From the NCBI GenBank assembly GCA_043803685.1, contig JAZDJU010000123.1:1-64000 (forward strand): a stretch of 64,000 nucleotides of DNA. Reading direction: 5' to 3'. A program made the position numbers and the translations under genes. Positions 44,195-64,000 of the stretch are shown piece by piece (the first letter of the stretch is position 1; every line of letters begins with the position of its first letter). A model generated the notes under the pieces. It did no database searches. It was given only the letters and a program-made list of their open reading frames with translations, and was not told where the DNA came from. Origin of the DNA: Candidatus Omnitrophota bacterium. GTDB taxonomy: Bacteria; Omnitrophota; Omnitrophia; Omnitrophales; Aquincolibacteriaceae.

Positions 44195-44232
44195 AGAGTC
44201 TCCCTTTATTTGCTTTTCATATATCGGCACTC

Positions 44233-44280
44233 TGTCAACATATTGTAGTCTTTTTTCATCACGCCCCCCACCTGTAGTGC
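44233..44280. promoter_or_regulatory. tandem NrdR boxes
   Basis: Cores CAACATATTG (44236) and CCACCTGTAG (44268), 32 bp apart, just upstream of nrdD; fit the acaCwAtATaTwGtg consensus, the second one weakly. Confidence 0.7.
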
Positions 44281-44593
44281 GATAGGCGGTCAGAAGGCTG
44301 AAAAAGATTGGCCATTTGATTTAAGATCGGGTCAGAAACAACTTCTCGCGTGCGGCGCAAAAAAAATTCAGCGCCCAAAAAGATCCTCCGCTTTCACTCA
44401 TGAAGGCAATGTTTTTCAAAACAAAGCGGATCACCGTCGCAAAAAAAACAGCGATCACGACAGCACGGATAATATTCGCATCACAAAAAAGTTTCAAGAA
44501 ATAATTATGGTTTTTTTCCGGAGAACTTTGAGGCGGGAATATTTTTTCTAAAAAAGTGCTTGAAAATCCAGGATCTCTGTGAAAAAAAACGGG

Positions 44594-45307
44594 TCAGCAG
44601 GTCCCGGACGCTTTATCACGGATCATTTCGATCAAAAGTTTTGCGATCTCCCCGATCGGAACGCGCTCCGTATTCCAAACCATATCGTAAAGAAGCGGGT
44701 CGCGGATGTCCTTATGAAAAAAAGTTTTTACGAGCTCGGCCTTCGCCTTATCTTTTTCATCGATCGTTTCACGCGCCGCTTTTTCAGACAGGCCGAACGC
44801 GCTCATCATCCGTTTCACCCGCGATTCCATCGGCGCCTCGAGCCGGACATGGATGCCAAGAGGGAGATCGCGTGTTAAAAAGGAGCATCCCCGTCCCACC
44901 AGGATCACTTTTCCGTGAATGGCAAAAGTCCGCATCAACTGGAACATCTTTTTAACCACAAGGTCCTGCGATGCGGTCCCGTGAATAAACTGGGTCAGAA
45001 TGTCCTCCGCGTGGGAATGATATTCGGTCCGACGGAGAGACTCGACCAGGTCCTTGAGCTTGGGGTCCTGGGCGATCGTGTGGCAGAGCTCCTGATCGCA
45101 AAACTGCCAGTCCCGGAATAGAGGCTCCCCGTGAAGGGCTTGTATCTTTTCGGAAAGAAGCGTGGCGAGTACCTGCCCGCCAGCTCCGGCCTGCCGGGAA
45201 ATAGCGACGAAAGGAAAGCGACCTTTTTGAGGATCGATCTCAGGACCGTTCTTTTCGTGGTAATGAAGACTGTCGATGAATGACGCCAGTTTTTGGATCT
45301 CGGTCAT
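44594..45307 (-). CDS. cytidylate kinase-like family protein
   Basis: ISRQAGAGG, GKVILVGRG, HVRLEAP..RV and DPLLYD; RBS GGAGG. Confidence 0.85.
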   Translation of the reverse strand: MTEIQKLASFIDSLHYHEKNGPEIDPQKGRFPFVAISRQAGAGGQVLATLLSEKIQALHGEPLFRDWQFCDQELCHTIAQDPKLKDLVESLRRTEYHSHAEDILTQFIHGTASQDLVVKKMFQLMRTFAIHGKVILVGRGCSFLTRDLPLGIHVRLEAPMESRVKRMMSAFGLSEKAARETIDEKDKAKAELVKTFFHKDIRDPLLYDMVWNTERVPIGEIAKLLIEMIRDKASGTC

Positions 45308-45325
45308 AAGTCCTCCTGAATTCAT

Positions 45326-45482
45326 GTCATCCCCGAATGCTTTACTCGGCACTGGCTCTCATTAAAACTTTTATTGAAAGCGAGTGCCGCACTAAACTTC
45401 CTATATGCTTCATAGGTTGTTCAGTGCGGGGACCCAGCATACCGCTCTTTATGGATCCCCGCTTCGAACTTACGGGGATGAC
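45326..45482. repeat. REP-like palindromic element with nested hairpin modules
   Basis: GTCATCCCCG at the left end and CGGGGATGAC at the right end; internal GGCACT..AGTGCC and GCACT..CAGTGC hairpins. Confidence 0.75.
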
Positions 45483-45503
45483 GCCCTTAAAGAAACACGG
45501 GCG

Positions 45504-47648: not shown

Positions 47649-47655
47649 ATCCTCC

Positions 47656-50600
47656 TTACGCCGCTACCGGGTTCGGAGCATCCGTCCCGGGCTTCGATTG
47701 GGCCAAATACTCGAAGCGTTTCCACCGCGCCGTAACTTCCTTTTGCGCGATCGCGTAAAGCCGCTTGGCCTCTTCAGGGTTGCTCTTCATGATCATCTTG
47801 AACCGGTTCTCCAGCATCAAATACTGCTCGAGCGGGATCGTCGGAGCCTTCGAATCGATCATGAGCGGGTTCTCCCCCTTCTCAAGACGCCGGGGATCAA
47901 AGCGATAAAGGATCCACTGCCCGGATGCCACAGCGGCTTTCTGGTCCTGCAGCCCGTTGATCATGTTGATGCCATGCGCGATGCAATGACTATAGTCGAT
48001 AATGAGCGACGGCCCGTCATAGGACTCGGCCTCCTGGATCGCCTTGAGAGTCTGCTGATCATTGGCCCCCATGGCAATGGTCGCCACATAAATGTTCCCG
48101 TACGTCATGGCGATCATCCCGAGATCTTTCTTGCCGCCAGGTTTTCCACCCATCGCGAACTTCGCGGTAGCACCGCGCGGTGTCGACTTCGACGCCTGTC
48201 CGCCCGTATTGGAATAAACCTCTGTATCGAGCACGAAAACATTTACATTTTTGCCCGATGCAAGCACATGGTCCAGGCCGCCATACCCGATGTCATAGGC
48301 CCATCCGTCACCGCCAAAGATCCAGACGCTCTTTTTGACAAGCGTATCCGCCAGGCTCAAGAGCTGGGCCGCATCGGCGTCCCCGCTAAGCCCCGCCAGT
48401 TTCTTCTTAAGCGCCGCCACGCGTTCCCGCTGATCATAGATCTCAGCCTCGGTCTGCTGCGCGGCGCCGAGGATCGGCTGAACGAGATCCGCTCCGAGCT
48501 TGTCCTGAAGCTTCACGAGAAGTTCGGAAGCATATTCCTTTTGTTTGTCGATCGCCATCCGGAATCCGAAGCCGAATTCCGCGTTGTCCTCGAAAAGCGA
48601 GTTCGACCACGCCGGCCCGCGTCCGTTGGCATCCTTGGCCCAAGGCGTCGTCGGCAGATTGCCTCCATAGATGGAAGAACAACCTGTCGCGTTCGCGATC
48701 ACGGCACGATCGCCGAAAAGCTGTGAGACGATCTTGATGTACGGTGTTTCCCCGCACCCCCCGCAAGCGCCCGAAAACTCAAAGAGCGGACGCATGGCTT
48801 GCTGCTGATTGATCATGCCGGTCTTCAGTTTCCGGCGATCATATTCGGGGATATCGAGAAAGAATTCCCATTTGGGAACTTCAACGCAACGAAGCGGGAT
48901 CTGAGGCGCCATGTTGATGGCTTTTTTCTTGGGATCCGTCTTGCTCTTGGCCGGACAGGTATCCACGCAAAGCCCGCAACCCGTGCAATCCTCGGGAGCG
49001 ACCTGGATCGTAAACTTCTGGCCCTTGAAATCCGGCATCTTCGCGTCCGCGGACTTAAATCCTTCCGGGGCTTTCTCAAGATATTTCGGATCATAGACTT
49101 TCATACGAATGACGGCGTGCGGACACACAAAGTTACACTTGCCGCACTGGATGCATATGTCCTGCTCCCATACGGGGATCTCAAGCGCGATATTACGCTT
49201 TTCATATTGTGTCGTCGCGGTCGGGAACGTGCCGTCCACCGGCATCGCGCTCACGGGGATCGAATCGCCGCGGCCTTCGATGATCGCGCCCAGAACAGTC
49301 TTCACGAACGCCGGGGCGTTTGCCGTCACAGGGGCCAATCTCTTGAGTTTGCTATCCACAACCGCGGGAACCTTGACCTCATGGAGATGCGCAAGCGTCG
49401 TGTCCACAGCTTGAAGGTTCTGCTGAACCACATCCTCGCCCTTCTTGCCATAGGTCTTCTTGATGGATTTCTTGATCTCGTCGATCGCCTGCTCACGCGG
49501 CAACACGCCGGAGATCGCGAAAAAGCAGACCTGCATGATCGTATTGATCCTCATGCCCATACCACTTTCCGCGGCAACCTTGTAGGCATCGATCACATGG
49601 AACTTCAGTTTCTTTTCAAGGATCTGTTTCTGAACTTCGATCGGCAGGTTCGGCCAAACTTCCTCGGAGCTCCAGGGAGCGTTCAAAAGGAACGTGCCTC
49701 CGGGCACGATGTTACGAAGCATGTCGTACTTTTCAAGAAAAACGGTCTGGTGACACGCCACAAAATGCGCCTTACTAATAAGGTAGGGCGAATGGATGGG
49801 CTCAGGGCCGAAACGAAGATGCGACACCGTGATCGCGCCGGATTTCTTGGAGTCATAGACAAAATACCCCTGGGCGTAATTCTCCGTGTTCTCGCCGATG
49901 ATCTTGATGGAATTCTTGTTCGCGCCCACCGTTCCGTCCGCGCCTAACCCATAGAAAAGAGCGCGCACGACCTTGTCGGATTCAATGGAATACTCAGGAT
50001 CAAAAGGAAGGCTTGCCTGAGTGACATCGTCATTAATACCGACCGTAAAACCGTGTTTGGTCTTACCCGAGGCGAAGAAATCAAAGATCCCCTTCACCAT
50101 CGCCGGCGTGAATTCCTTGGAGGAAAGACCGTAGCGACCCCCGTAAATCTTGGGCGCCTGCGTGAACTTCGACCAGCCGTTCTGAGAAGCTTCCTGGAGT
50201 GCGGCCACGCAATCGAGATAAAGCGGCTCGCCGATCGCTCCCGGCTCTTTGGTACGGTCAAGCACGATCAGATTTTTTGTGGTTTGCGGCAAGAGACTTA
50301 CGAAACGTTTCACATCGAACGGACGATAAAGAGAAACTTTGAGACAGCCGACCTTCGCGCCTTTGGCGGTGAGGGCCTTCACGGTCTCCGCGGCCACTTC
50401 CACGCCGGACCCCATGATCACGATGACCTGCTCCGCGTCCTTGGCGCCAAGGTACTCGAAAAGCTGATACTTCCGTCCGGTGATACTTGCGAACTTGTCC
50501 ATCGCCTGCTGAACCATGTCCGGGCACGCGGTGTAGAACTTGTTGACCGTTTCACGGCCCTGGAAATAAACGTCCGGATTCTGCGCGGTGCCGCGAAGCA

Positions 50601-51279
50601 CGGGACTGTCCGGCGAAAGCGCGCGGGCACGATGCTCCATCACTTTGGCCATGTTGATCATGCCTCGAATATTGTCCTCAGATAGAAGGCTGATCTTCTG
50701 AACTTCGTGCGAAGTACGGAAACCGTCAAAGAAATGAAGAAAAGGAATGCGGGACTCCAGGCTTGCGGCCTGAGCGATGAGCGCGAAATCCATCGCCTCC
50801 TGAACCGAATTGGAAGCCAGCATCGCGTAACCGGTCTGGCGTACCGACATGACGTCCGAGTGATCACCGAAGATCGAAAGCGCCTGGTAAGCGAGTGAGC
50901 GAGCGGAAACGTGCATGACCATGGAGGTAAGTTCCCCCGCGATCTTGTACATATTCGGGATCATGAGAAGAAGTCCCTGCGACGCCGTAAAGGTCGTCGT
51001 CAAAGCGCCGCGCTGAAGCGCGCCGTGCACCGCGCCGGCAGCTCCGCCTTCGCTCTGCATTTCGGCCACGGACGGAACCGTTCCCCAAATATTCTTTTTA
51101 CCCTGGGATGCCCATTCATCGGCCCATTCCCCCATGTTGGAGGATGGCGTGATGGGATAAATGGCGATACACTCGTTGACGCGGTACGCGACATAAGCGA
51201 CCGCCTCGCCGGCGTCCATGGTAACGAATTTTTTGCTGACGGATTTCGCTTCGGATTTTTCCAGGGTCTGTTCAGGCAT
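47656..51279 (-). CDS. nifJ: pyruvate:ferredoxin (flavodoxin) oxidoreductase
   Basis: YPITPS, MQSEGGA, GRYGL, two ferredoxin motifs (CIQCGKC, CTGCGLC), GACGGCGE and GGDGW. Confidence 0.97.
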   Translation of the reverse strand: MPEQTLEKSEAKSVSKKFVTMDAGEAVAYVAYRVNECIAIYPITPSSNMGEWADEWASQGKKNIWGTVPSVAEMQSEGGAAGAVHGALQRGALTTTFTASQGLLLMIPNMYKIAGELTSMVMHVSARSLAYQALSIFGDHSDVMSVRQTGYAMLASNSVQEAMDFALIAQAASLESRIPFLHFFDGFRTSHEVQKISLLSEDNIRGMINMAKVMEHRARALSPDSPVLRGTAQNPDVYFQGRETVNKFYTACPDMVQQAMDKFASITGRKYQLFEYLGAKDAEQVIVIMGSGVEVAAETVKALTAKGAKVGCLKVSLYRPFDVKRFVSLLPQTTKNLIVLDRTKEPGAIGEPLYLDCVAALQEASQNGWSKFTQAPKIYGGRYGLSSKEFTPAMVKGIFDFFASGKTKHGFTVGINDDVTQASLPFDPEYSIESDKVVRALFYGLGADGTVGANKNSIKIIGENTENYAQGYFVYDSKKSGAITVSHLRFGPEPIHSPYLISKAHFVACHQTVFLEKYDMLRNIVPGGTFLLNAPWSSEEVWPNLPIEVQKQILEKKLKFHVIDAYKVAAESGMGMRINTIMQVCFFAISGVLPREQAIDEIKKSIKKTYGKKGEDVVQQNLQAVDTTLAHLHEVKVPAVVDSKLKRLAPVTANAPAFVKTVLGAIIEGRGDSIPVSAMPVDGTFPTATTQYEKRNIALEIPVWEQDICIQCGKCNFVCPHAVIRMKVYDPKYLEKAPEGFKSADAKMPDFKGQKFTIQVAPEDCTGCGLCVDTCPAKSKTDPKKKAINMAPQIPLRCVEVPKWEFFLDIPEYDRRKLKTGMINQQQAMRPLFEFSGACGGCGETPYIKIVSQLFGDRAVIANATGCSSIYGGNLPTTPWAKDANGRGPAWSNSLFEDNAEFGFGFRMAIDKQKEYASELLVKLQDKLGADLVQPILGAAQQTEAEIYDQRERVAALKKKLAGLSGDADAAQLLSLADTLVKKSVWIFGGDGWAYDIGYGGLDHVLASGKNVNVFVLDTEVYSNTGGQASKSTPRGATAKFAMGGKPGGKKDLGMIAMTYGNIYVATIAMGANDQQTLKAIQEAESYDGPSLIIDYSHCIAHGINMINGLQDQKAAVASGQWILYRFDPRRLEKGENPLMIDSKAPTIPLEQYLMLENRFKMIMKSNPEEAKRLYAIAQKEVTARWKRFEYLAQSKPGTDAPNPVAA

Positions 51280-51530
51280 GTGATGATCCTTTGGTTTCGA
51301 GGTTTAGGATGTCATTTTTAAGATATCAAAAAATCGCGTCCACGCAAAACACACGAATCGCTTACAGCTTCCGACTTACCGTCCTCCGGATATTCCAAAA
51401 ATGAGGCCTGGAACGAGGGACTTTGAAAGGCTTTCTATGTCGTTCGGGGGCACGCTGACGGGCCTTTCACCAAATTCACGACTCGTGTGGGGCATTGTAT
51501 GATTTTACGGAGTTATTTTCAAGGGAAAAG

Positions 51531-51604
51531 GCGCGGAACGAGAAACGTGGAACGTAAAAGTCTTTTTCTTTTTATTTTCGCGTTCAGCGTGCCCCGTTAC
51601 CCGC
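51531..51604. repeat. inverted heptamer-repeat hairpin
   Basis: GCGGAACG AGAAACG TGGAACG / CGCGTTC AGCGTGC CCCGTTA CCCGC. Confidence 0.65.
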
Positions 51605-51659
51605 CTTTCAGACTCGTTCAATCCTTGCATTAAAAGACCGTATTGATTAGTATCCGTTC

Positions 51660-52052
51660 ATGTCCCACGACACGATCAGCCTTCTTCAATTCATGGTCTG
51701 CAAGGATTTCGAGCCCGGCGAACAGGACTGCTATACCGCCAACCTCGTCCGGAGCAATCTTCACGTGCCTTCCTTCCCCTACCATTTCGACCAGCTGTAC
51801 GCGGTCACCTGCTGGCGCAAAGACAAGATGTTCCACAAGGAAGTGATCGAGTATGCCACCGAGGACGGACAGGTCCTCAAAACACCCCCCATGGACATTG
51901 AGCCCGTCACCTCAAGCGTACTCTTCCGTTGGCACAAACATGCTTTTCCGGCAGACCTTGAGATCCAGAAAGACGGCCTGCTTCACATTCGTGTCATCCT
52001 GGATTGGAAAGTCCATTTCGAGTCGTATCTCATGATCGAGAAGCGACCCTAG
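51660..52052 (+). CDS. hypothetical protein
   Basis: 130-aa ORF with a plausible beta-rich sequence, upstream of the antiporter on the same strand. Confidence 0.7.
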   Translation: MSHDTISLLQFMVCKDFEPGEQDCYTANLVRSNLHVPSFPYHFDQLYAVTCWRKDKMFHKEVIEYATEDGQVLKTPPMDIEPVTSSVLFRWHKHAFPADLEIQKDGLLHIRVILDWKVHFESYLMIEKRP

Positions 52053-52076
52053 TGACTGGCATGATACTTGCAATTG

Positions 52077-52117
52077 GTCATTGCGGACAAGATGTCCCTA
52101 CGCTCCTTCGCAATGAC
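52077..52117. repeat. short REP-like hairpin
   Basis: GTCATTGCG..CGCAATGAC. Confidence 0.65.
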
Positions 52118-52134
52118 AAACTAAGGACTCAAAC

Positions 52135-53379
52135 ATGACCCATCACGACTGGTTGCCACAATTCTGGATGACACTCCCCTTCATAGGGCTTCTTCTTTCG
52201 ATCGCACTCCTCCCGCTCACTGCGCCCAAATTCTGGCACTCGCTCAAAAATCAAACCCTTGTGGCGCTCTTCTTTTCTCTACCGGTCGTTTATTTATGCC
52301 TTGTTCACAACCCCCATCTGCTTTTTACCGGCTTGGAACATTACCTTTCGTTCGTGATCCTGCTGGGCTCCCTCTTCATCGTCTCGGGGGGCGTTTGTAT
52401 CACCGGCGATCTGGTCAGCACGCCACTCGCCAATACTCTGATGCTCGCAACAGGCGCCGTCCTCGCGAACTTCATCGGCACGACCGGAGCTAGCATGGTT
52501 TTGATCCGGCCACTTCTTTTTGCGAACAATTACCGCAAACACCATATTCATATCCCGATCTTTTTTATCATGATCGTCAGCAACATCGGCGGTCTGCTTA
52601 CGCCTCTCGGGGACCCCCCTTTGTTCCTGGGATTCTTATTGGGCGTCCCTTTTTTCTGGACCTTAAGCCTTTTCCCGTTCTGGGTTCTTGCGGTCGGGAT
52701 CCTTCTTGCTGTATTTTTCGTGATCGATTATCGGGCCTTCGACCATGAGACAAAAAAACTGCAACGTGAAGCCCGCTCGGATAAACCGGTCCACATCAAA
52801 GGACTCCGGAATGTGGCCTGCTTAGGGATCATCATCGCTTCAACGCTCTGGGCCCCGCAACCTTACCGGGAAATATGGATGGTGGCGGCCGCGCTCATCT
52901 CTCTTAAGATAACACCCAAGACCTACCATCAGGCCAATGGCTTCACCTTTGACCCGATCACAGAAGTAGCCGTTTTATTCCTCGCCATCTTCATTACCAT
53001 GGAACCCGCGCTCGAGATCCTTTATTTGCGGGGAGCGGAGCTTGGCATCACACAGCCGTGGCAATTTTTTTGGGCCACCGGCGGATTCTCTTCCTTTTTG
53101 GATAATGCACCGACCTATTTGACGTTCATTTCCTTGGGACAAGGTCTGAAATTAGCGGGCCCCCATCTCAATCTACCGGAAAACATTCTCACGGCCATAA
53201 GCGTGGGAGCCGTGTTCTTTGGCGCTATGACCTACATTGGAAACGCACCCAACTTTATGGTGCGCTCGATCGCCCAACATCGCGGTTGGAAAATGCCGAG
53301 TTTCTTTGGGTATATGCTTTGGTCGGGGCTCATTTTATTACCCCTCTTTGGTTTGATCACTTTTGTTTTTTTTCGGTGA
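52135..53379 (+). CDS. putative Na+/H+ antiporter (ion transporter superfamily)
   Basis: Multi-TM; GTTGASM, SNIGGLLTPLGDPPLFLG, SSFLDNAPTY and MTYIGNAPN. Confidence 0.9.
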   Translation: MTHHDWLPQFWMTLPFIGLLLSIALLPLTAPKFWHSLKNQTLVALFFSLPVVYLCLVHNPHLLFTGLEHYLSFVILLGSLFIVSGGVCITGDLVSTPLANTLMLATGAVLANFIGTTGASMVLIRPLLFANNYRKHHIHIPIFFIMIVSNIGGLLTPLGDPPLFLGFLLGVPFFWTLSLFPFWVLAVGILLAVFFVIDYRAFDHETKKLQREARSDKPVHIKGLRNVACLGIIIASTLWAPQPYREIWMVAAALISLKITPKTYHQANGFTFDPITEVAVLFLAIFITMEPALEILYLRGAELGITQPWQFFWATGGFSSFLDNAPTYLTFISLGQGLKLAGPHLNLPENILTAISVGAVFFGAMTYIGNAPNFMVRSIAQHRGWKMPSFFGYMLWSGLILLPLFGLITFVFFR

Positions 53380-53401
53380 CCTAAAATCTACTTTCCACGC
53401 C

Positions 53402-53508
53402 AGACGACAGACCACAGACTGTAGACCAGAGTAAAAACAAAAACTTAAACGAGGATTTCGCCTCTGGGTTTTTGAACTGCAGGCTTTAGTCTTAGGTCTG
53501 CAGTCTAC
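53402..53508. repeat. inverted heptamer-repeat hairpin
   Basis: AGACGAC AGACCAC AGACTGT AGACCAG / AGTCTTA GGTCTGC AGTCTAC. Confidence 0.7.
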
Positions 53509-53512
53509 GCTG

Positions 53513-53779
53513 CTACTGCCCGTAAATCTCCCGCCGGTGGCCAATACGAAGAATGGTGAGTACCGTTCCGTGGATCTTGTAAATAACACGCCAGTCCCCG
53601 ACCCGAAGTTTCCAATAACCTTTCAAGGTATGCCGAAGAGGCGCTCCGAACTCATGAGGGAAAAAGGCTAGCTTTTGCTCGATGGCCCTGCGGATCCTGT
53701 GTTTCTCCGTAGCGCCGATCCTGGGCAGGTCATTCCGGACAACGTCGGGATGGTAGAAGATCTCGAACCGTGGCTCCAT
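53513..53779 (-). CDS. type II toxin, RelE/ParE family
   Basis: G.PLR..LKGYWKLRVGDWRVIY..I......IGHRREIY. Confidence 0.92.
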   Translation of the reverse strand: MEPRFEIFYHPDVVRNDLPRIGATEKHRIRRAIEQKLAFFPHEFGAPLRHTLKGYWKLRVGDWRVIYKIHGTVLTILRIGHRREIYGQ

Positions 53780-53790
53780 AGGCAGGATAC

Positions 53791-54021
53791 TTACGAACCC
53801 CAAACGTCCCGGTGACGGACCGGCTTCTTTTTAGAAAGAGACTTCTCCCGTTCCGCCGCACTCTTGGCCCAATACGTATCTTCATGAATAACCAATGCCT
53901 CACGCAGAAGATCGCGGGCAACGAGCGACATGGACAAGCCTTCCTTTTTGGACATTTTATAAAGAGTTTCGTAGATCGAAGGCTCTAGGACAACATTAAG
54001 CCGCGGTTGTTTTGTAGACAT
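53791..54021 (-). CDS. antitoxin (ribbon-helix-helix-like)
   Basis: RLNVVLE..Y..L..MSKKEG.SMS.VARDLL.EAL, directly upstream of the toxin; RBS AAGGAG. Confidence 0.85.
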   Translation of the reverse strand: MSTKQPRLNVVLEPSIYETLYKMSKKEGLSMSLVARDLLREALVIHEDTYWAKSAAEREKSLSKKKPVRHRDVWGS

Positions 54022-54046
54022 GAGGGGCTCTCCTTTTTCTAAGCGA

Positions 54047-54075
54047 AGTGTATCACAAGTGATGAACCCTGGCAA
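54047..54075 (-). promoter_or_regulatory. toxin-antitoxin promoter with overlapping operator palindrome
   Basis: TTGCCA, 17-bp spacer, TACACT; inverted repeat ATCAC-AA-GTGAT at 54052-54063. Confidence 0.6.
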
Positions 54076-54112
54076 GCCTCTCCCTCAAACTAAAAGCCAG
54101 AGGCTGCAGAAC

Positions 54113-54178
54113 CCGGGGAACGGTTAACGGGAAACGGTGAAAGCAAATCTTTTACGTTACCCGCTCCACGTTCCCCGG
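54113..54178. repeat. inverted heptamer-repeat hairpin just downstream of the giant gene
   Basis: CCGGGGAACG GTTAACG GGAAACG / CGTTACC CGCTCCA CGTTCCCCGG. Confidence 0.7.
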
Positions 54179-54195
54179 CCGATCAAAGAACGGCG

Positions 54196-57100
54196 TTACG
54201 CTGCCTTCTCCACCGCCCGGCTAGCGGCGAATTCCTGAGTAAGCATTTCCATATCCATGGTAAGGACCCCGTTTTTCGCCGAAAGAGCCAAGAGGTCGAT
54301 GCCTTTTTCTTTTAATTTCGAGATCAGCATCGAGGGATCCACCTTCATGAGTTCCTGATCCATCGGTGATGCCGCGGCATAGATTCTGTTGATCAGAGCT
54401 ACCGCTGCACAAACAAGCTTCTTCAGCTCAGGATTATCTTTACTCTTAAAATCCGCCAGGATCGACAGAATGCCATGAGGCTCGACGCCGAGCTCTCTCG
54501 TAAAAAACGCCATGAACGGCTCACTCTCACTCGCCTTGACGACATCTCTCACGAGAACATTCGCAGGCTTCCGCTCGCTTATTCTGATTTTCATGACAAC
54601 ATTGGAAACATCATCCCAACCTCTTCCCACCGGATTATTTTTGTCGTAGAGAACGACCAAACGCGGAATTTTTTCCATCTTCCTCAAAGCATCAAGCTCG
54701 AGATTCGAATCCGGCCCCTGTTCAACGATCATCGAAACACCGGAGCCGGGCATTTTGCTGATCAAATCATCAATGAAGCTTGTGAACCCCTGGGTTTTCT
54801 TGATATCAATTTTTCTAACCTCCGACCGTCTAACATCCCCAGACTTCATCAATGCCGGCGATGCCTCTGCTCCGCCTATCAGTGCCTTCATCGATATCTC
54901 AGCCGCGATTGCGTCCGTCATACCATACGGCTCAAAAAGTTTCACAAGAAGTTGCGTCAATCCTGTCGAAACAAATTCCGTAAGCGCGGCGACGTCCTTG
55001 TAGCCTTGCAGCTGCGCCATCAGCGCAGTCTCTTGATCGCCAAACTTCGTTTTCTCGCTATCGATCCCCGCCTGTCCTTGTCTCAGCAGCAACGCCTGAA
55101 CCGCGTCAGGATTACTGTCCTGCGTCATTTGAGTAATTTGAACTGCCGGCGTCCCCGTAAGCACTTCCAACGGATTCTGATCGATCCGCACCTCAGAACG
55201 GCGAGACCCAAAAAAATCACGGAGATGCTCGAACTTTGGATCGAGAGGGTCATCTAATATATCGATCGCAAATTTATGTATATTGGGGTTATTCTTAAGT
55301 TCATGTATGCTTGGCTTAACTGTGAGCATTCCTGCCTCCACACGCGGCTCAAGAAATTCGACATAGAAGCGTCTGGCATCAGCGGGAAAACTCAAAGAGA
55401 TCTGCTTCATGTCTTTCATGAACATATCGCTCAACGCAGCGTCAAAGGTGATCGTTCCATTCCCTCGTATTTTATCCCTGGCGCTTATGAGTAGAGTCAC
55501 TTTAGCAAGAGCGATATTAGCAACCACAACCCCTCCGATAGCACCCAGAGGCTTAGGCTTCATAAGCACATACACGAGCGTATTCTGATCCTGAAGCGTT
55601 TTCTCCCACCGAGATCTACCTTCCGCATTGCTATCGTCAGAAAAGCCTCTTGATAGCTCAAGATTGAAAAGTCTCGCCGCCAGGGACTTGAGCTGATCCG
55701 GATTTTCTTCCAGCGATTTCCTCGCGTTGACGACTGTCCCAAGAATTTCATGTTCCGAAATGATGGCCTCCGACCTCGCCTCAGCACGCTCTGGGGTGGA
55801 GGTCGCCGGCGACTGAGGAATGCCCACAGCAACAGGACCCAAACCCGCCTCAGAACGCTGAGCACCCCAAAACTTGCGGAGACCAACAAACTTCGAATCA
55901 AGTGGGTTCGCAAGCAATTTGATTTCGATGTCAGGTCGTGGGTCCTCCAAGCCCTTACGCGCAGATGAAATAATCTTAAGAACCTCCATTTCTTGACGGG
56001 GGTTCAAGAACCCCTTCTCTTCGTCGGTATAGAATCCCTCTGAAAGTCCTGTAAAGTTCCACGAAATTAGCATTTTTTGTTTTTTAGACATTTCACTCAA
56101 AAAGGTATCGAGAAGGAATGATCCCCTTCCCCGGACTTTATCTGGCGAGCTCATGAGTCGGGCAAGGCGCACAGTTTCACCTTCCAGATAACCACGAACC
56201 ACCCCAGCAATGTCCTCTGAAGGATCAAAAAGCACGTACACATAATGGCTGGGATCGCGCAAGCTTGCCTCCAATTCGCGCACGCTTCTTTCAAACTCCT
56301 CTACATCCATTTTAGAAATATAACTTTCCGTTTCAACTTCACGAATCCTTCTTGCTAATTGTTCGAATTTTGAGGGGTCAAAACGCTTCGCATCAACCGT
56401 TTTGCCAAGACCAGGGTATTCCGCAATAACAGCTTCTTTCGGGATCTCGAACCGGGCTTCCGAGCGCTGAGTGCCCCCAGACTCGCCAAGGGGATTCTTT
56501 AGCAAATTAACTTCGTAAGAACGGCCCTCGTGCTTGAACGTCAATAGCCCCTTCTCCTGGCGCGCATTCAAAATATCCAGTTCGCGATCATCCGATGAAT
56601 ACCACCCGATCCTTTCGACGCCCTCTTTGCTCATCAGATTCAAAAATAGCTCCATAAAGGGTGCCAGGGTTCCATTATCGAGACTTAAGAGCGAATCCAG
56701 CCACATCTCTTTTTTTCCTTTCAACACGGGACCGCGAGGCACGGCAGCTCCTGAAATTTCCCCGTTCTTGTCGACAAATACCCACATGGCCTGATCGGGG
56801 TCTTCCAGCATCGCCTCCCAAAACCCTGTATCCATTTCCCATTTTCCCAGCACAAAGCTCGGACGATCGAGATAATAAAGCCTTGAAGCCAACGGCTTGA
56901 GTTGATCCGGGGCGAGCTTCAGCCATTCTCTCGCATCCACTATTTTCCCAAGGGGATACTCCGCAACCACGGGGACATTGGACGGGAGGTCAAACTTCGT
57001 ATCATGCCTGCGTAATGCGTAAAGAGGAGCGAACTCGGGAGCCAAGGGATCTTTGAGCAGGGTCACGTTGTAAACAGAGCCGGCAGTTCCGGTATACGTC

Positions 57101-60100
57101 AAGATCCCGTTCTCCTGAAGAGGTTTCAATACACTTTCATAGAAATTTCCGTCTGAAGTGTCTCGCCACAAAATTCCCATGATCCCTTTCTTGAACATCT
57201 CGCTAAAAAATGCGCCCAAAACCATTCTTCCCTTCCCCCGGATCCCGTCATCAAGACTCGCCAGCCGACCCAGCGACGCTTTTTTTCCGCCTTCGAGATC
57301 AACCTCAGCAACCGCGGATATATCCCCGTGGTCATTAACGAAAAAGAAGAAATCTTTGCGACTGTCTTGCAGTTCCTTCTCCAAAGGCTTGAGCTGATCC
57401 GGTGCGAGGGCTAGCCAATCCCGGGCGTTCACGACTTCCCCGAAACCCTCAGCCTTAGCGACCACTCGCACACCCTTGGGAAGTTGTAGCCGGACCTCGG
57501 AACGACCTTCAACATATCTCACGGGACGCCTTCCGGTTGTGACCATTCTAGGGAATTCAGGTAATGGATAAAGCGGTCTGAGTAACAGAAGGGGATCGAT
57601 TGCTTGCAGATCTCTCACACCAAAACCCGTATACAACTCGCCGTTGACCTTATGAACCTCCAAGTGCAAATGATCATAAGTCCGTCCATATTGCTTCTCA
57701 ACCTTCGGCGATAACGGGTACTCTCTTCTAACGGCTTCTTTTTTATGCCAGGCATTGACTCTTCCGAGCCTTTCTCCCTTTTTGACCCCCAAATCGCTTT
57801 TAGAATCAAACCAGGTATGTTTTAAAATATGTTCGGGAATGCTATCTCTCTGCAAATGTACATATTGCCAGAGCAGATCAGAAGCAGGAGAATAGACCCA
57901 AACATCCGCGAACGAGGCCGCAGCCGAGTCACCTCTACCATCGAACCTTTGCACATAGACGACAAAGCCATCCTCAACAGGGTATACAGAAGTGCCAGGT
58001 TCGGCTTGAAGATCGATGCCATCATGTTTTTCGTCTCGATCTGTTGTTGGCCAGTTGGTCGTTCCAAAAAAATTAGCGATGTGTCTTGTCGCCACCGACA
58101 TATCCACAGGCCATTCAAACGAGTGAGAAAGTGGCTTCAAACTATCAGGCAAGCTTCCCATCCTGACGTGCCGGAGATAAGCTTCGCGCTCAACCCCCAA
58201 AGGATCCACATCGTTTTGTCGCAAAGGCTGGAAGTTTCTCATCTCCGAGCGCTTGTACCCCACAAAGTCGCGGAGATCATCAAATTCGGAAGCAAGCGGA
58301 CTCTTAAACAAACGAACCTTGTATTTAAAACCATCCTTCTCAAATGTCAAAATACCTCTTGCTTCGCGATCCGCTAAAAATTTATCGTAGAATGCTTCCG
58401 AACCAGACGATGCTGTCCATTCAAATTCCGTCTCGAGTCCGCCATACATCCGGTCCAGAAAAGCATCCAGCAGAAGCGTCCCTCTTCCACGCACTCCGTC
58501 GTCGAAGCTCATAAGTCGATCCAGGCCTATAGTATTCCCCTCCAGCGGCCGAAAGTGACCGCTCACAGCACCGACAAGATTCCCTGAACGATCTCTCAGG
58601 ACATAGATATATTGTTCAGGATCCCCAAGCTTGCTTTTCCAAAAAGCAATATCCGTCTGCCATGTTTGGGCCAAGGAGCGTAATAGCTCCCATTCCATCT
58701 CGTAGAGCCCTTTTGCCAAAGTCTCTATTTCTTCCTGACCTGGATCCCCCCCATGGAAATCCTTCACGTCCAGAACTTCGCCAACACCAATGTCCGGCAC
58801 GATCACGCGAAAACCTTCAGGGATCTCGAATCGCGCCTCGGAGCGTTTTGTCCCTACAAATTTTCGGAGATCATCGAATTCAGGATCAAGTGGATTTTTC
58901 AACAATGTGATCTTGTACGAATCGCCATCCAGTTTAAATTGAAGAATTCCCTTCGAACTTCTGGCATTCAGAAAATGATCATAGAAATCCTTGGCATCAC
59001 TGAGGGAGTGCCATTCAATCTTTTTGAGATCCCGCTTGAACATTTCGCTCAAAAAAACATCCAGAAGATACGTCCCCTTCCCCTTCATTCCGTCCTCAAC
59101 GCTGATGATCTGCACCAGCTGCGCGCCACCTACGTGAGGCAGGGGAGAAATACTCAAGGCAACACCAACAACATCCCCAGCCCGTACAAGCAGTTGCACA
59201 TGCTGCAACGAATCTCCGAGTGTTTCCTTCCATTCACGTACGCCGTCCTCCGTTTTCTCCCAAGAGAAATGCTTCACTTCGAACGCATCAAGGAACTTGG
59301 CCAAGGGCTCGAGTTGGGTCGGATCAGCCTTAAGCACATCCCTCGCATCCACCACTTCCCCAACGCCAATATCCGGTGCGATAGCCTTAACACCCTCAGG
59401 GATCTCGTATCTAACTTCCGAGCGCTTCGACCCAACAAACTTGCGGAGATCATCGAATTCTGGAGCGAGCGGATCCGCAAGCAATTTGATCTCGACATCG
59501 GCTTCAGGCGTTACGCTGCGAGACGGATCATGCTTTAATCGTTCCAGCATCCCGGCGTCCTGCCGAGGCTTTAAATATCCTTTTTCTTCGTTAAGATAGA
59601 AATTCTCTGAGAATCGGCTAACATTCCATCTGAATATCGTGACGCCGAGGCGGGACATCTGACTTAGAAAAACATCCAAAAGAAAAGTGCCTTTCCCTTG
59701 GACGTTGTCATTAACGCTCATGAGCCGGTCCAACCAGACACCTTCCTCACCCTTCAAAGTGAACTTGCTCCCTCTGACGGCCGCCCCAACGATCTCTCCG
59801 GAAAGATCTCGAAGGATGAACACAGACTCAGGATCTTCCAGGATATCCAGCCATTCCAACACACTCGGGACTTTCTGTCCTTCCTGGATGTAGCAGCGAC
59901 TAGAGAGCTCATAGAGCCTTTTCGCCAAGAGTCCTGCATCCAACCCAAGCTGATTTGCATTGAACACTTCCCCGACAAGAGCATGCTCCGCGATTGCAGG
60001 AACACCTTCGGGGATCTCGATACGAACTCCAGCTTTCTTTGGAGACGGCTTCGCCGACGGAACCGGGCGCCCTTCCGCAGACTTCTTCTCACTCCAGCGG

Positions 60101-63100
60101 AGAGCGACTTCGCGCAGGGCGAGCGAAAAACTGTTTAACTCTAACTGTATCGCGGGCCAATCAGGCAGAGACTGAAGACTCTTCAAATACCACCCAGAGG
60201 GACGCGCATAACCAATGTAGTGGCTCAATTCCCCATTTAAGTGGTCCACGAATCCCTGAAAGAATTGTTTTCCGGTCAGATTTAGCAACGCAAGATCGTT
60301 GATCGGAACAACACGACCCAATCCTGGGATTTCAAATAAGAAAAGGCCTTTGATCTCATCCCCGAGTTCTGCCAAACTCATCTTTGAAAGCTTTTCAGCC
60401 TGGGCCTCGTCTTTTTCAGAGATACTCCATATTCGCGGGTCCTGCAGGGGCTCACCTAAGCTGTCCTTACTGGCCCGCTCAAAAACCACGTCGAAACTCT
60501 CGCCACGGCTAACTATTTCCCCACCACCTCGCACTTCAGAACGGCTTGCCCCCATGGCAACCTCCGAAGTGACGGAACGGGAAGGAATGAGATAGGCTTC
60601 TGCCTTATCGGCCGAATCAAGATAGTAGGGCTCCTCGCCCCAGGTTCCCCCGAGCTTTTTCTTCGCAAAGGGCACCTTCCGCCCCCCCAGTTTTCCGATC
60701 ACCACTTGTTCGATAAAATCATCGTTGGAAACATATTTCCCATGCCCCGGTATTCCAAGATAAAGGTCTTTCGCAGAGATCTTCTGCTGAACATACCCCG
60801 CGTAATTGATCGTCTGCTCCCCGATCCAGAACATCAGCGCCTGACTGCGCTCATACGCGGCATGGATCTCCAGATTCTGGATCACGAGACTCCCGTCCTC
60901 GTCCAGATAGAGCCACGCCGCCGCCATCGTCTCGCCCGTCTTGTCATCCACTACTTCCATCACACTCATCCCCTCATCCACCAACCGCTCCACCATCGCG
61001 TGCGGGAATTGCCCCGACCCCATTCCGAGGCAGCAAGTGACCTTATCCCCGATGAATAAGTCCTGACCCGGCTGGCGGCCATAAAGACGAAATTGAAAAT
61101 ACGTGCGCATCGCCAGGATCTTCTGGTTCTCACGATCCAGGAGCCTCAGCTTGAGCGTCACAAGCTTTTCATAAAAATGCGTAGCCGCTTCAAGGGCTTT
61201 TCGGTCTTGAGGCCCTTGAAGTTTTTGGATCATATTTCGAACCGCGCTTAAAAGCGTCCCGGGATTTTCATCAGCTCCCAGAAGTTTTACGTTCGTCAGG
61301 ATCTTCACCGCATCGTTTTTCTTGGGACCTTCCTGACTCACCTGAAACTCGACTTTGCCTTCCTTCTCCGCAACCTTCAATCCTGCTTTTCCAAGGATCC
61401 CGACCCAACCCGCGGACGCGTTGTTTGCCGCCGCGTAAGTTTTTCCCGCGTCTTCCAATACCTGATCCACATCCGCATCCGGACTCCACGCCCGGTCCTG
61501 CCCCTGCCCGGAATAAAGCAACTCTCGCGGCTCGACTTTGGAGTTCTTGCCAAGCCAGGCGTCCATATCGTCCCCGTTTTGCTTCCCCAGGTCCCGGACA
61601 CGCTTATTGTGCAACGCCAATGGCCGTCCAATCGCGTCCGTCTGGTCCGTGTTTTCAATAAAATCCATGAACCGTCCCCCAAAAAAAGAGGTCAGTGTGG
61701 CGCGCATCAGACCGCCTCGCTCCTCGGCTCCTTGTTCCCCAGATTCTATCGTCTTCAGCCCTTTCACAAGCAGATGCGCCCGGTTCCAGTCCAGAAGAGC
61801 ATGCACCTGTTCCGGCAATCCGTTCCCGCTGATTTCGATCCCAAGATCTTGGGCCAGAAACAAGACGAGTTGGCGTTTCAAGTTTTTCGCAAGCGGAGTG
61901 GGTGGCAGGGCTTTCATTCCCGCGAACTGCAACTCTTCTTCCAGCGCTCGTTCGCGGCCCATGGCTCCGAAGATCGAAGCGACGTTCATCAACTCCAAGA
62001 GTCCGGTCACGTCTGGGGAGTACTTTTGACCACTTCGATCCTTCAGGCGTTCCTGATAATTCAGAAGGGCCTTCGCCAACCGTGGATTCTCCAAGACCCC
62101 CTGTTTGTCGGTGATCCATTTCCGGAGCATGTTCGCGCTAAAGATCTTCTGACTACGGATAAGCCCTTCCAAATTCTTCATGGCTCCCGGCACCAGCACT
62201 TCCACTGCCACAGTCATGGAAAGCATCCGTGATATCTCGCCTTCCACAAGCCTTCGATTTAAGGATAACTCGGAATTTCTCTCCGCGAGCACAACCCCGA
62301 GAGAGTCCCTTCCCTGGTCCAGGGCATCAAGCCAGGGTTTATCCTGACCGAATAGAATTTCACCCAATGCGCGATTATCAATCGCATAGGTTAGGTGATA
62401 TTTCCTGACCCACTGCCGCGATCGTTGCAATGCATCCTCCAGATCCCCCTCCGGCATGGATTGCTTCACAAAGGACAATAAACCGGAACTTTCAGCGACC
62501 AGAAGCTTTCCGGCCGCATCTTCTAATCCATTCTCCCTAAGCGTTTGAAACCACTTGTTCGCCATCAAAACTGACGCCGCGTCCTTCTCCATCAATCCGG
62601 ACGATACGGCCGCGATTACAAGCTCACTGGCCTGGCTTTCAAACCCGTTTTTTTTCAGGGTCGCTTGAAAACATTCGTCCACCCTGGCGATCGACGCCTC
62701 ACCCTTCTCCATCAATCCGAACCTTACGGCCTCGACCACAAGCGGACCTGCCCAGTACTCCAACCCATTCTTCTTGAGCGTTTGAAACCATTCGTCGACC
62801 TTCGCGATCGACGCAACGTTCTTCTCCAGCAACCCGGACTTTACGGCCTCGACCACAAGCTCACCGGACAGTTTCCCCAATCCCTTCTCCATGAGCACCT
62901 TAAACCATTCATCAACTTTGCCAATCGACGCCACGCCGCGTCCCATCACCCCGGACTTTACAGCTTCGATCGCAAGGTGACCGGCTAAGTCAGCACGCCC
63001 CATCGTTATGTGCATTTGAAACCATTGGTCCAATTCGGCGAGCGATGCCTTGCTTTCCTCCATCAATCCGGACTTGACGGCCTCGAGCAAAAGCAGACCG

Positions 63101-64000
63101 GCCACATCCCACCTCTGCGCATCCTTGAGCAACTGGAGACATTCGTTCAGCCGGGTGATCGCTACGCTCTCCTCCATCAACCCGGATTTTACGGCCGCAA
63201 TCACAAGCAGACCGGCAAAGTCCACCCACCTTGCCTCTTTTAGCGCGTAAAACCATTCGTCCACTTTGGCGATCGAAGCCGCGTTCTTCTCCACCAGTCC
63301 GGACCTTAGGAACGCAATCATAAGCTCACCGGCCGAATACCTTCTCGCACTCTTTATTAACACGTAAAAATGTTTGTCCAACCAAGTGATCGCTGCGCTC
63401 TTCTCCATCAACCCGGCCTCAGTGGCCGCGAGCACAAGCTGACCGGCCCATTCTTCCAACCTCACTCTCATTAGCGCTTGAACCCATTCGTTCACCTTGG
63501 CGATCGACACGGGGTTCGTCTCAATAAACCCGGCCTTTACGATCCCGGTCACAAAGTCCCCCGAAAAATACGACCGAGGCTCAGCAACGAGCACGCGGAA
63601 CAACTCATCCACCTTAGCGATCGACGCCGAATTCTTCTTCATCAATCCGGACTTGATTGCCTCGAGCATCACCTGCCCGGCCTGTCCCGCTTTGTTGTCG
63701 TCAGTAAGCAATCGTTCAATCAAGGTCATGACCTGTTCCCTTTTCATGATCAGTTGCTTGGCTTCCGTGCGAACAGCGTCAGGGAACAACGCCACCAGTT
63801 GCTTCCCGTCCTCCACATCCGGCAAAGAATCTCCATCAGCTCGCATTTCAGAACGTTGATCTTCGGACCTGGTTGAAGAGTCAGGACTCGAGCCCACTTC
63901 CGGGGGGCGGGGTTCTTTGCCGCGGGGCGGAACAGCGGCCTTCCCAAACAGCGATTTCCACACCCCGATTCTCACACCAACAAGAAAGAGCCCTAAGGCT
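54196..64000 (-). CDS. giant modular protein, 5'-truncated by the window (>3260 aa): helical repeats, seven GNAT-like modules and an M23 peptidase, separated by RSExR motifs
   Basis: The frame stays open beyond the ORF-track GTG at 63975 (upstream ALGLFLVG, TM-like). HDGID..HLHLE M23 motifs; repeated RGxG..LLD.FL units. Confidence 0.92.
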   Translation of the reverse strand, partial: ALGLFLVGVRIGVWKSLFGKAAVPPRGKEPRPPEVGSSPDSSTRSEDQRSEMRADGDSLPDVEDGKQLVALFPDAVRTEAKQLIMKREQVMTLIERLLTDDNKAGQAGQVMLEAIKSGLMKKNSASIAKVDELFRVLVAEPRSYFSGDFVTGIVKAGFIETNPVSIAKVNEWVQALMRVRLEEWAGQLVLAATEAGLMEKSAAITWLDKHFYVLIKSARRYSAGELMIAFLRSGLVEKNAASIAKVDEWFYALKEARWVDFAGLLVIAAVKSGLMEESVAITRLNECLQLLKDAQRWDVAGLLLLEAVKSGLMEESKASLAELDQWFQMHITMGRADLAGHLAIEAVKSGVMGRGVASIGKVDEWFKVLMEKGLGKLSGELVVEAVKSGLLEKNVASIAKVDEWFQTLKKNGLEYWAGPLVVEAVRFGLMEKGEASIARVDECFQATLKKNGFESQASELVIAAVSSGLMEKDAASVLMANKWFQTLRENGLEDAAGKLLVAESSGLLSFVKQSMPEGDLEDALQRSRQWVRKYHLTYAIDNRALGEILFGQDKPWLDALDQGRDSLGVVLAERNSELSLNRRLVEGEISRMLSMTVAVEVLVPGAMKNLEGLIRSQKIFSANMLRKWITDKQGVLENPRLAKALLNYQERLKDRSGQKYSPDVTGLLELMNVASIFGAMGRERALEEELQFAGMKALPPTPLAKNLKRQLVLFLAQDLGIEISGNGLPEQVHALLDWNRAHLLVKGLKTIESGEQGAEERGGLMRATLTSFFGGRFMDFIENTDQTDAIGRPLALHNKRVRDLGKQNGDDMDAWLGKNSKVEPRELLYSGQGQDRAWSPDADVDQVLEDAGKTYAAANNASAGWVGILGKAGLKVAEKEGKVEFQVSQEGPKKNDAVKILTNVKLLGADENPGTLLSAVRNMIQKLQGPQDRKALEAATHFYEKLVTLKLRLLDRENQKILAMRTYFQFRLYGRQPGQDLFIGDKVTCCLGMGSGQFPHAMVERLVDEGMSVMEVVDDKTGETMAAAWLYLDEDGSLVIQNLEIHAAYERSQALMFWIGEQTINYAGYVQQKISAKDLYLGIPGHGKYVSNDDFIEQVVIGKLGGRKVPFAKKKLGGTWGEEPYYLDSADKAEAYLIPSRSVTSEVAMGASRSEVRGGGEIVSRGESFDVVFERASKDSLGEPLQDPRIWSISEKDEAQAEKLSKMSLAELGDEIKGLFLFEIPGLGRVVPINDLALLNLTGKQFFQGFVDHLNGELSHYIGYARPSGWYLKSLQSLPDWPAIQLELNSFSLALREVALRWSEKKSAEGRPVPSAKPSPKKAGVRIEIPEGVPAIAEHALVGEVFNANQLGLDAGLLAKRLYELSSRCYIQEGQKVPSVLEWLDILEDPESVFILRDLSGEIVGAAVRGSKFTLKGEEGVWLDRLMSVNDNVQGKGTFLLDVFLSQMSRLGVTIFRWNVSRFSENFYLNEEKGYLKPRQDAGMLERLKHDPSRSVTPEADVEIKLLADPLAPEFDDLRKFVGSKRSEVRYEIPEGVKAIAPDIGVGEVVDARDVLKADPTQLEPLAKFLDAFEVKHFSWEKTEDGVREWKETLGDSLQHVQLLVRAGDVVGVALSISPLPHVGGAQLVQIISVEDGMKGKGTYLLDVFLSEMFKRDLKKIEWHSLSDAKDFYDHFLNARSSKGILQFKLDGDSYKITLLKNPLDPEFDDLRKFVGTKRSEARFEIPEGFRVIVPDIGVGEVLDVKDFHGGDPGQEEIETLAKGLYEMEWELLRSLAQTWQTDIAFWKSKLGDPEQYIYVLRDRSGNLVGAVSGHFRPLEGNTIGLDRLMSFDDGVRGRGTLLLDAFLDRMYGGLETEFEWTASSGSEAFYDKFLADREARGILTFEKDGFKYKVRLFKSPLASEFDDLRDFVGYKRSEMRNFQPLRQNDVDPLGVEREAYLRHVRMGSLPDSLKPLSHSFEWPVDMSVATRHIANFFGTTNWPTTDRDEKHDGIDLQAEPGTSVYPVEDGFVVYVQRFDGRGDSAAASFADVWVYSPASDLLWQYVHLQRDSIPEHILKHTWFDSKSDLGVKKGERLGRVNAWHKKEAVRREYPLSPKVEKQYGRTYDHLHLEVHKVNGELYTGFGVRDLQAIDPLLLLRPLYPLPEFPRMVTTGRRPVRYVEGRSEVRLQLPKGVRVVAKAEGFGEVVNARDWLALAPDQLKPLEKELQDSRKDFFFFVNDHGDISAVAEVDLEGGKKASLGRLASLDDGIRGKGRMVLGAFFSEMFKKGIMGILWRDTSDGNFYESVLKPLQENGILTYTGTAGSVYNVTLLKDPLAPEFAPLYALRRHDTKFDLPSNVPVVAEYPLGKIVDAREWLKLAPDQLKPLASRLYYLDRPSFVLGKWEMDTGFWEAMLEDPDQAMWVFVDKNGEISGAAVPRGPVLKGKKEMWLDSLLSLDNGTLAPFMELFLNLMSKEGVERIGWYSSDDRELDILNARQEKGLLTFKHEGRSYEVNLLKNPLGESGGTQRSEARFEIPKEAVIAEYPGLGKTVDAKRFDPSKFEQLARRIREVETESYISKMDVEEFERSVRELEASLRDPSHYVYVLFDPSEDIAGVVRGYLEGETVRLARLMSSPDKVRGRGSFLLDTFLSEMSKKQKMLISWNFTGLSEGFYTDEEKGFLNPRQEMEVLKIISSARKGLEDPRPDIEIKLLANPLDSKFVGLRKFWGAQRSEAGLGPVAVGIPQSPATSTPERAEARSEAIISEHEILGTVVNARKSLEENPDQLKSLAARLFNLELSRGFSDDSNAEGRSRWEKTLQDQNTLVYVLMKPKPLGAIGGVVVANIALAKVTLLISARDKIRGNGTITFDAALSDMFMKDMKQISLSFPADARRFYVEFLEPRVEAGMLTVKPSIHELKNNPNIHKFAIDILDDPLDPKFEHLRDFFGSRRSEVRIDQNPLEVLTGTPAVQITQMTQDSNPDAVQALLLRQGQAGIDSEKTKFGDQETALMAQLQGYKDVAALTEFVSTGLTQLLVKLFEPYGMTDAIAAEISMKALIGGAEASPALMKSGDVRRSEVRKIDIKKTQGFTSFIDDLISKMPGSGVSMIVEQGPDSNLELDALRKMEKIPRLVVLYDKNNPVGRGWDDVSNVVMKIRISERKPANVLVRDVVKASESEPFMAFFTRELGVEPHGILSILADFKSKDNPELKKLVCAAVALINRIYAAASPMDQELMKVDPSMLISKLKEKGIDLLALSAKNGVLTMDMEMLTQEFAASRAVEKAA

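Follow-up and report, generated by a model that had tools for sequence, protein, structure and literature searches.

A junction motif and an underlying 16-bp palindromic word in a giant gene family of Omnitrophota

Viral polyproteins are translated in one frame and cut by a site-specific protease (3C in picornaviruses, NIa in potyviruses) at a short, lineage-specific consensus lying between whole proteins. Integrons (IntI, attC) array unrelated genes between imperfect palindromes and move them as units, with attC sites carrying a GTTRRRY core, and in CRISPR arrays a palindromic repeat flanks unrelated inserts. Here we analyse a giant gene that has features in common with each of these. It was found in a window of 64,000 nucleotides, the whole stretch of DNA under analysis (positions 1 to 64,000 of contig JAZDJU010000123.1, here C123, assembly GCA_043803685.1, Candidatus Omnitrophota bacterium), where positions 54196..64000 on the minus strand hold the 3′ part of the gene (3,267 codons). 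The 5′ end, out of reach of a preliminary description made from the window alone, has been recovered, giving a full frame of 7,108 codons from stop to stop (C123:54199-75522). Its modules are set apart by a five-residue motif, R-[SA]-E-x-R, beneath which lies a 16-bp imperfect palindrome of DNA (hereafter the word); the feature holds up, is general within one order and stands well apart from known systems.

Giant proteins have been described from this phylum. For those of the 'Archaeovorin' type, the main text of one preprint suggests cleavage into several products, with C39 or S8 peptidases proposed, states that the cleavage points are unknown and poses the question of whether the proteins act whole or cut (bioRxiv 10.1101/2023.11.21.568195), and a catalogue of 'multi-enzyme metabolic clusters' uses a length cut-off of at least 10,000 residues (bioRxiv 10.64898/2026.06.07.730766). 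Our gene shares with the multi-enzyme giants, as their main texts present them, the phylum, an N-terminal signal and many unrelated enzymes in one frame, and like them it has several module types (HEAT, M23 and seven GNAT-like). At 7,108 codons it is below the size cut-offs of both preprints; a paralogue in the same genome is longer than 10,126. The main texts of both preprints make no mention of TIKI, linkers or palindromes, and that of the 2026 preprint (10.64898/2026.06.07.730766) none of motifs or of cleavage, points on which the supplements may bear. Nothing relevant was found in the Omnitrophota literature on polyproteins, TIKI or palindromes, in which subscription papers were poorly covered, and neither the peptide motif nor the N-terminal domain described below (the head) was found in print.

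Like viral polyproteins, the gene has a short consensus between whole functional proteins in one frame; unlike them, it is chromosomal, has many paralogues per genome and a TIKI-fold candidate protease, its junction is also a DNA word, and the cutting is a prediction. Like MARTX toxins, it encodes a large, predicted-exported modular protein from which proteolysis would free the modules, and its head has a residue set like that given for the TIKI-fold effector RRSP in the available text of that study (PMC6254334). However, RTX/MARTX repeats and the cysteine protease domain were not found in a Pfam scan of 16 segments spanning the whole protein, which gave only HEAT_2, M23 and one weak EF-hand match, and the TIKI domain of MARTX is cargo and not a processing enzyme, whereas the head is here the candidate processing enzyme. 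As in integron arrays, unrelated genes lie between recurring imperfect palindromes, but the cassettes are fused in one frame, the 16-bp site lacks a GTTRRRY core and no integrase could be linked to the array. The palindromic repeat around unrelated inserts, the runs of one variant and the more decayed terminal copies resemble CRISPR arrays; unlike CRISPR, the inserts span about 0.1-3 kb or more and for the most part encode protein, the repeat itself is translated, and Cas1 was found in 0/5 genomes (76-94% complete). New here are the motif as a genome trait, the palindromic word CCGC-N8-GCGG, duplicates bounded by the word and antisense genes between words. We know of no precedent for a site that is both recombination target and protease site, and none was found in the literature searched.

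The motif separates whole proteins

Nine exact copies of RSE[VAM]R lie in the window against 0.012 expected from composition. The preliminary description had listed these nine, and all nine 15-nt stretches do translate so on the minus strand, far above background frequency, though it missed a tenth canonical copy, RAEAR, at 55774-55788. Its remark that three copies (aa 41, 1145 and 3050 of the protein in its track of open reading frames, ORFs) stand away from GNAT-like repeats is correct. R[SA]E[VAMLITS]R occurs 16 times in the full frame, and the window accounts for ten of these. When considering the whole genome, 157 motifs fall in 17 ORFs, compared to 0.62 expected, and the other 1,512 ORFs hold 3; these 17 ORFs were selected by the motif itself. 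Selection by the head instead gives 13 giants of at least 1,500 residues, all of which carry the motif in 4-28 copies, so that its presence in other giants, suggested earlier as a check, is borne out. Giants of this genome without a head lack the motif in 12 of 14 cases, the remaining two being 5′-truncated with family-like ends. Variants at a single residue of the Arg, Glu and Arg positions occur at about background, Ala is tolerated for Ser, and the median spacing between motifs is 226 residues. A second set of giant ORFs, of 2,400-5,900 codons and without head or motif, is present on contigs C75, C72, C86, C130, C106 and C31 of the same genome (G000).

The family as defined by its N-terminal 600-800 residues was found in 41/41 near genomes and in 117 of 151 genomes sampled across the phylum. 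Every complete member in this genome has a helix-like tail ending in [AS]A, and such tails recur in members across several classes; they may serve as a tag for export or for recognition by a protease. That the C-terminal segment forms a single conserved domain was ruled out, since the last helix alone is shared.

To place the motif relative to known domains, giants were cut into fixed-size chunks blind to the motif and scanned with Pfam, one family being kept per matched region. Not one of 157 motifs fell inside the 40 matched stretches, where 14.1 were expected. Multi-domain enzymes run unbroken between motif pairs (hexokinase, PAS hybrid kinase, beta-CASP nuclease, glycogen synthase and phosphoglucomutase), and the two-domain hexokinase is bracketed by motifs six residues off on each side. 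For one GNAT module the predicted model has both flanking motifs in coil, and in 18 loci of relatives 16/20 homologues of the module have a motif 0-38 residues upstream and 16/20 have one close downstream; in family f3 the homologous module is set off by GxSLG instead. Position outside Pfam matches, coil conformation and a flanking position kept in relatives together show that the motif is not part of a fold, which disposes of the doubt, raised in the preliminary description, that it might be a structural element of the modules. The motif thus separates whole proteins.

Beyond this genome the motif differs between families. Among 40 giants from relatives, chosen by head alone, R-[SA]-E-x-R is present in 28/28 from families f1, f4, f7 and f9 (1-21 copies each) and in 0/12 from f2, f3, f6, f8 and f10, 10 of which have [GAS]-x-S-L-G at similar spacing. 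Among 30 distant giants, GAR[LM]A is found in 4/5 of family f23 and RxSTSG in 2/3 of f17. Trees of the heads (a quick tree of 49 and a FastTree of 92) give no support to each head reading its own motif, and that possibility was set aside. Motif type is a genome trait, not a head trait, and because it follows the genome and not the head clade, the writer and the reader of the motif appear to act on all giants of a cell.

A 16-bp word beneath the motif

The DNA of the motif leans to C-CGC-KCC-GAR-GYG-CGG, a 16-base imperfect palindrome (CCGC-N8-GCGG). The first Arg is CGY in 135/157 copies (background 39%) and Ser is TCN in 155/157 (background 67%), a codon bias strong enough to place conservation at the peptide and the DNA level both. 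Codon-pair or restriction-site avoidance was ruled out as its cause: Arg before TCN elsewhere is CGY in 45-49% of cases, and GATC is not avoided. The preliminary description had noted that the codons differ synonymously, which they do, and had concluded that conservation was at the peptide level only, which does not stand; of the two halves of its title, polyprotein or cassette system, the word supports the second, against which it had itself argued. The base before the first Arg codon, free of any peptide constraint, is C at 62/172 sites here compared to 42.5 expected, and at 63/95 sites in f4/f9 compared to 26.7. Both four-base arms are intact at 7/172 sites in this genome and at 8/134 in other f1 giants (0.9 expected in each), and at 31/95 in head-chosen f4/f9 giants (0.3 expected), while other RxxxR 5-mers, taken as control, are near background.

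Of 96 genomes in the order, 58 contain the exact word and none its reversed control; by family these are 43/65 in f1, 9/12 in f9, 5/5 in f4 and none in the other seven. A de novo palindrome scan recovers CCGC-N8-GCGG in genomes G035, G032 and G027 and weakly in G002, with nothing convincing elsewhere, and family f17, with 13 and 4 copies in its two genomes, has the same arms around a 10-base core and encodes another peptide there. Identity among sites is limited to the 16 bases and has sharp edges. In this genome the word is much eroded, with two exact copies. Sites called here by DNA likeness only are in frame in 92 cases and number at most 6 in any other frame, and 74 of 79 changes in the two Arg codons at DNA-defined sites are silent, which indicates that the peptide is under selection. 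In relatives decay is further advanced in the first and last copies than in those between them. Twenty loci (L100-L119) were picked for holding the word, so that counts from them are biased; one, L100, has six identical words in a row between modules without mutual homology. Free copies outside giants are no commoner than in the reversed control (10 vs 9).

Recent duplications tend to end at the word. For 16 within-genome duplicate pairs outside heads, both ends are at most 3 nt from words in 8, one end in 3 and neither in 5, and 39 of 64 duplicate ends lie within 30 bases of a word, compared to 6.3% at random; one word-bounded duplicate, of 3.3 kb, is in this genome. A further kind of insert is a complete small gene for a coiled-coil protein (conserved YTVTEVGTLLE, without a clear Pfam family) present in 9/96 genomes, which in 10 of 12 loci lies antisense inside the open giant frame, mostly between two motifs (L107:11316-11849, L102:13430-13942, L169-L180), and which may be a word-targeting mobile element or a functional overlapping gene. 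Long hairpins of 110-175 bases, like intergenic palindromic repeats, are likewise found in frame between two words in unrelated contexts (L108, L110, L111, L115). Together these suggest that DNA can enter in both orientations, and that a piece is retained as long as it does not close the frame. Such inserts are rare, with 3/537 segments reading best in another frame.

Enzymes that might join DNA at the word were surveyed in five genomes, with tyrosine recombinases in 5/5, reverse transcriptase in 4/5, Y1 transposase in 4/5 and IS110 in 2/5. G035, the genome richest in words, has two tyrosine recombinases (79% complete). Among the 104 ORFs neighbouring this genome's giants a single tyrosine recombinase was seen beside a giant, about 0.6 kb before the gene on the same strand (G000:C34:12537-12974; L132:4417-5688).

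The head domain, a model and its alternatives

The preliminary description found no protease identifiable in the window, and this holds; the candidate is this gene's own head, which lies upstream of the window edge by 9-11 kb. Together with a signal-like N-terminus it belongs to the 5′ part, on contig C123 up to 75522 and outside the window. A motif-like PAEVR stands directly after the predicted signal sequence (L001:15220-15245, minus strand). The structure model of the head is confident (predicted local distance difference test, pLDDT, 90), and five of its top six structural matches are TIKI/Ere proteins at Z 8.2-9.1: EreC (Z 9.1, root-mean-square deviation 8.0 over 185 aligned residues), 2qgm (8.7, 4.2, 159), ChaN (8.6, 5.7, 182), HopBA1 (8.5, 3.5, 163) and Bcr135 (8.2, 4.2, 164), two of which are Bacillus Ere-like proteins. 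With Ere, ChaN and HopBA1 the head has a parallel beta-sheet core in common. Pfam gives weak ChaN, TraB and Ere matches in 2-4 of 79 heads, and a search of PDB sequences by head profile gave nothing meaningful. Across these 79 heads H177, E205, Y521, R527, G559, G560 and H562 (numbering of this gene) are invariant, and D175, in the arrangement D175-x-H177, is nearly so (at least 90%). In RRSP, a site-specific endopeptidase, a 2His/2Glu+Arg set is essential for catalysis according to the available text; the His-to-Glu spacing of 28 in the head equals that of H3902/E3930, and the order of residues agrees, as matched by sequence order and not by superposition (PMC6254334). We therefore predict the head to be a TIKI/Ere-fold hydrolase.

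Heads also exist as genes of their own, of 518-739 codons (L062-L071; G000:C114:46201-48417). In other families a free-standing head is followed by a gene with a signal-like start in 8/10 loci, and three such genes end in AA. This arrangement fits action of the head in trans, and the pair may be a split form of the system.

The model that we put forward on these sequence patterns has two halves. Modules would be inserted in frame at the 16-bp word by an enzyme joining DNA there, with a copy of the word left on each side of the new piece; pieces that keep the frame would survive, and older words would erode by silent changes, the peptide being preserved. Export of the precursor via its N-terminal signal would follow, and the TIKI/Ere-fold head, acting on any giant of the cell, would cut after the last Arg of the motif, freeing cytosolic-type enzymes, lipoproteins and membrane proteins. 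Their place of use is probably on or in a cell of a host or prey, which is conjecture drawn from the lifestyle that published work proposes. Taken whole, as an in-frame cassette array and a polyprotein with the head as its protease, we judge the model somewhat better than evenly supported.

Several observations weigh against it. Copies in the window depart from the word at 2-6 positions. An excess of neighbouring words that are identical is seen in G035 (16/117) but not in G032 (2/86) or G027 (1/79), and fresh words beside compositionally foreign modules reach significance in G035 (rho 0.30, p 0.003) but in none of three other genomes. Codon bias is present in the GxSLG and GARLA words without a clear palindrome, and none of the enzymes surveyed in the five genomes was tied to giants. 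Two of seven GNAT-like repeats in the window have no motif in front, and in 24 of the 30 giants from other classes and orders no clear motif was found. G035 and G032 show an enrichment of Met after the motif and this genome does not (2 vs 3.9), a lack of excess by which internal start codons after the motif were ruled out here. For the head, fold scores are middling, with a methyltransferase tying at Z 8.6 (98 residues), and no Foldseek match passed E 0.001; in 6/13 heads of the genome N, S or T replaces the first acidic residue, and the Ere and ChaN relatives of the fold are not proteases. Additionally, motif types are interleaved on the head trees, with six changes of which at least four are forced by well-supported branches, so that orthologous heads must read different motifs, which is awkward for the head as protease.

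Some of these points would be met if polyprotein and cassette word were both retained but a separate protease of the cell or host did the cutting, the head serving in export, ligand binding or other hydrolysis. A motif that is a genome trait and ignores head clades would then be natural, as would the missing first acid and the presence of heme-binding ChaN and HopBA1 among the best fold matches. However, no protease or recombinase is shared among the 104 ORFs beside the genome's giants. All 13 long motif-bearing giants that have a 5′ end carry the head, which keeps four invariant active-site-type residues, and the first motif follows close behind it. We consider a separate protease unlikely and retain the head as the candidate.

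Whether the chain is cut at all can be approached from the sequences that follow the motif. Within 30 residues after the motif, a hydrophobic 15-mer begins at 18/155 sites, and one ends just before the motif at 2/154 (Fisher p 0.0003), the random rate being 1.8%. Two lipobox-like leaders and two of three twin-arginine-like leaders come after a motif. Signal-type leaders work only at an N-terminus, and it is because they start just after the motif that the predicted cut is placed after its last Arg. TatC was not found in this genome (91% complete) and was found in 4/4 relatives. All DNA-level results, and the joints without a motif, would fit with a word that is a recombination site only, the giant staying one chain and the peptide being an uncut binding tag for a chaperone, translocon or scaffold. 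The leaders speak against this, as do the cytosolic enzymes and exported modules in one chain and the strict Arg...Arg pattern, with single-residue variants at background, that resembles a protease site. An uncut chain thus seems to us distinctly improbable, and cutting of the chain at the motif likely.

For the word itself, a role as a recombination or insertion site in some sense is very likely. One could suppose that the motif is a protease site only, its DNA likeness coming from ordinary duplication and from RecA-type or slippage recombination without a dedicated enzyme; the palindrome lacks compensatory covariation, the five-genome enzyme search tied none to giants, and the word is eroded here and unclear in the GxSLG and GARLA families. 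Yet the peptide-free base before the first Arg codon is conserved, the word is constant across three families, f17 keeps the arms with another core and peptide, and fresh words flank unrelated modules and antisense genes, so that this explanation strikes us as very doubtful.

Decay of the word proceeds by transitions, alike on both arms, with C-to-T enriched on the left and G-to-A on the right, and no compensatory changes were found between arms (no covariation at the silent base pairs 0/15, 3/12 and 6/9 of the palindrome). This is the behaviour of double-stranded DNA after a fixed word is written, and not of an RNA stem; a hairpin under pairing selection is ruled out by it and by inconsistent flank swaps. 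Release of the modules without a protease, by a messenger RNA hairpin at which translation pauses or splits or the RNA is cut, is hardly credible: canonical words do fold to small hairpins (-5.0 to -9.5 kcal/mol) and motif regions fold slightly better than synonymous controls, but besides these patterns G-U pairs are not favoured, and silent changes are tolerated where amino-acid changes are not. We keep to the in-frame cassette array and polyprotein as the likely reading.

Layout of the window and significance

All features of the giant gene in the window are on the minus strand and are given here in the direction of translation. A decayed copy, RSEDQ (63856..63870), which the preliminary description had placed correctly, directly precedes the first junction motif, RSEMR (63841..63855), which has 5 mismatches to the canonical word. 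There follows a 1,099-residue module (60544..63840) without a Pfam match, made of helical repeats of about 38 residues each and an unannotated C-terminal part; there are about ten repeats, a TCC motif lies in the C-terminal part, and the only PHROG match is marginal. It is closed by RSEVR (60529..60543, 3 mismatches). A non-canonical KAGVR (60022..60036) stands ahead of GNAT-like repeat 1 (59425..60021), and RSEVR (59410..59424, 5 mismatches) comes before repeat 2 (58846..59409), for which a GNAT fold is predicted (E 1.5e-7) with both flanking motifs in coil; the other GNAT-like repeats are 34-47% identical to it. RSEAR (58831..58845, 2 mismatches), repeat 3 (58252..58830) and RSEMR (58237..58251, 5 mismatches) lead to an M23-family peptidase-like module with HxxxD and HxH (57505..58236; Pfam PF01551, E 2e-6, 28.2 bits against a cut-off of 28.7).

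After RSEVR (57490..57504, 3 mismatches) come GNAT-like repeats 4 and 5 (56467..57489), whose joint is RHDTK, without a motif, then RSEAR (56452..56466, 3 mismatches) and repeat 6 (55858..56451). A cluster at 55762..55857 holds RSEAG (55843-55857), the canonical RAEAR and RSEAI (55762-55776); both variants had been reported earlier, by the low ends of their coordinates. Repeat 7 (55201..55761) is followed by RSEVR with 2 mismatches (55186..55200; left arm CCGT, right arm GCGG), the last junction motif is RSEVR (54814..54828, 6 mismatches), and the C-terminal segment (54199..54813) has a helix-like tail ending ...KAA. No stand-alone homologues of the GNAT module of the window were found at near length, and no Rfam families in 50000-64000. 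Downstream neighbours (window 41228-53376) are an anaerobic ribonucleotide reductase and its activase, an acetate--CoA ligase-type gene, a pyruvate:ferredoxin oxidoreductase and a membrane protein.

For the family, the motif points to exact positions where cutting may occur and to a candidate protease, and it marks natural borders for annotating modules; the word offers a testable route by which the largest bacterial genes known may grow and be reshuffled. Useful tools could come from the enzymes involved. The strongest form of the proposal, a natural gene-capture and polyprotein system in which DNA would be integrated either way round at the 16-bp palindrome within giant genes, the site duplicated and the captured proteins freed after export by a TIKI-fold protease at a cleavage site encoded in those very bases, we offer tentatively, as somewhat less than an even prospect. 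If true, it would explain both the growth and the use of genes of 10,000-100,000 codons.

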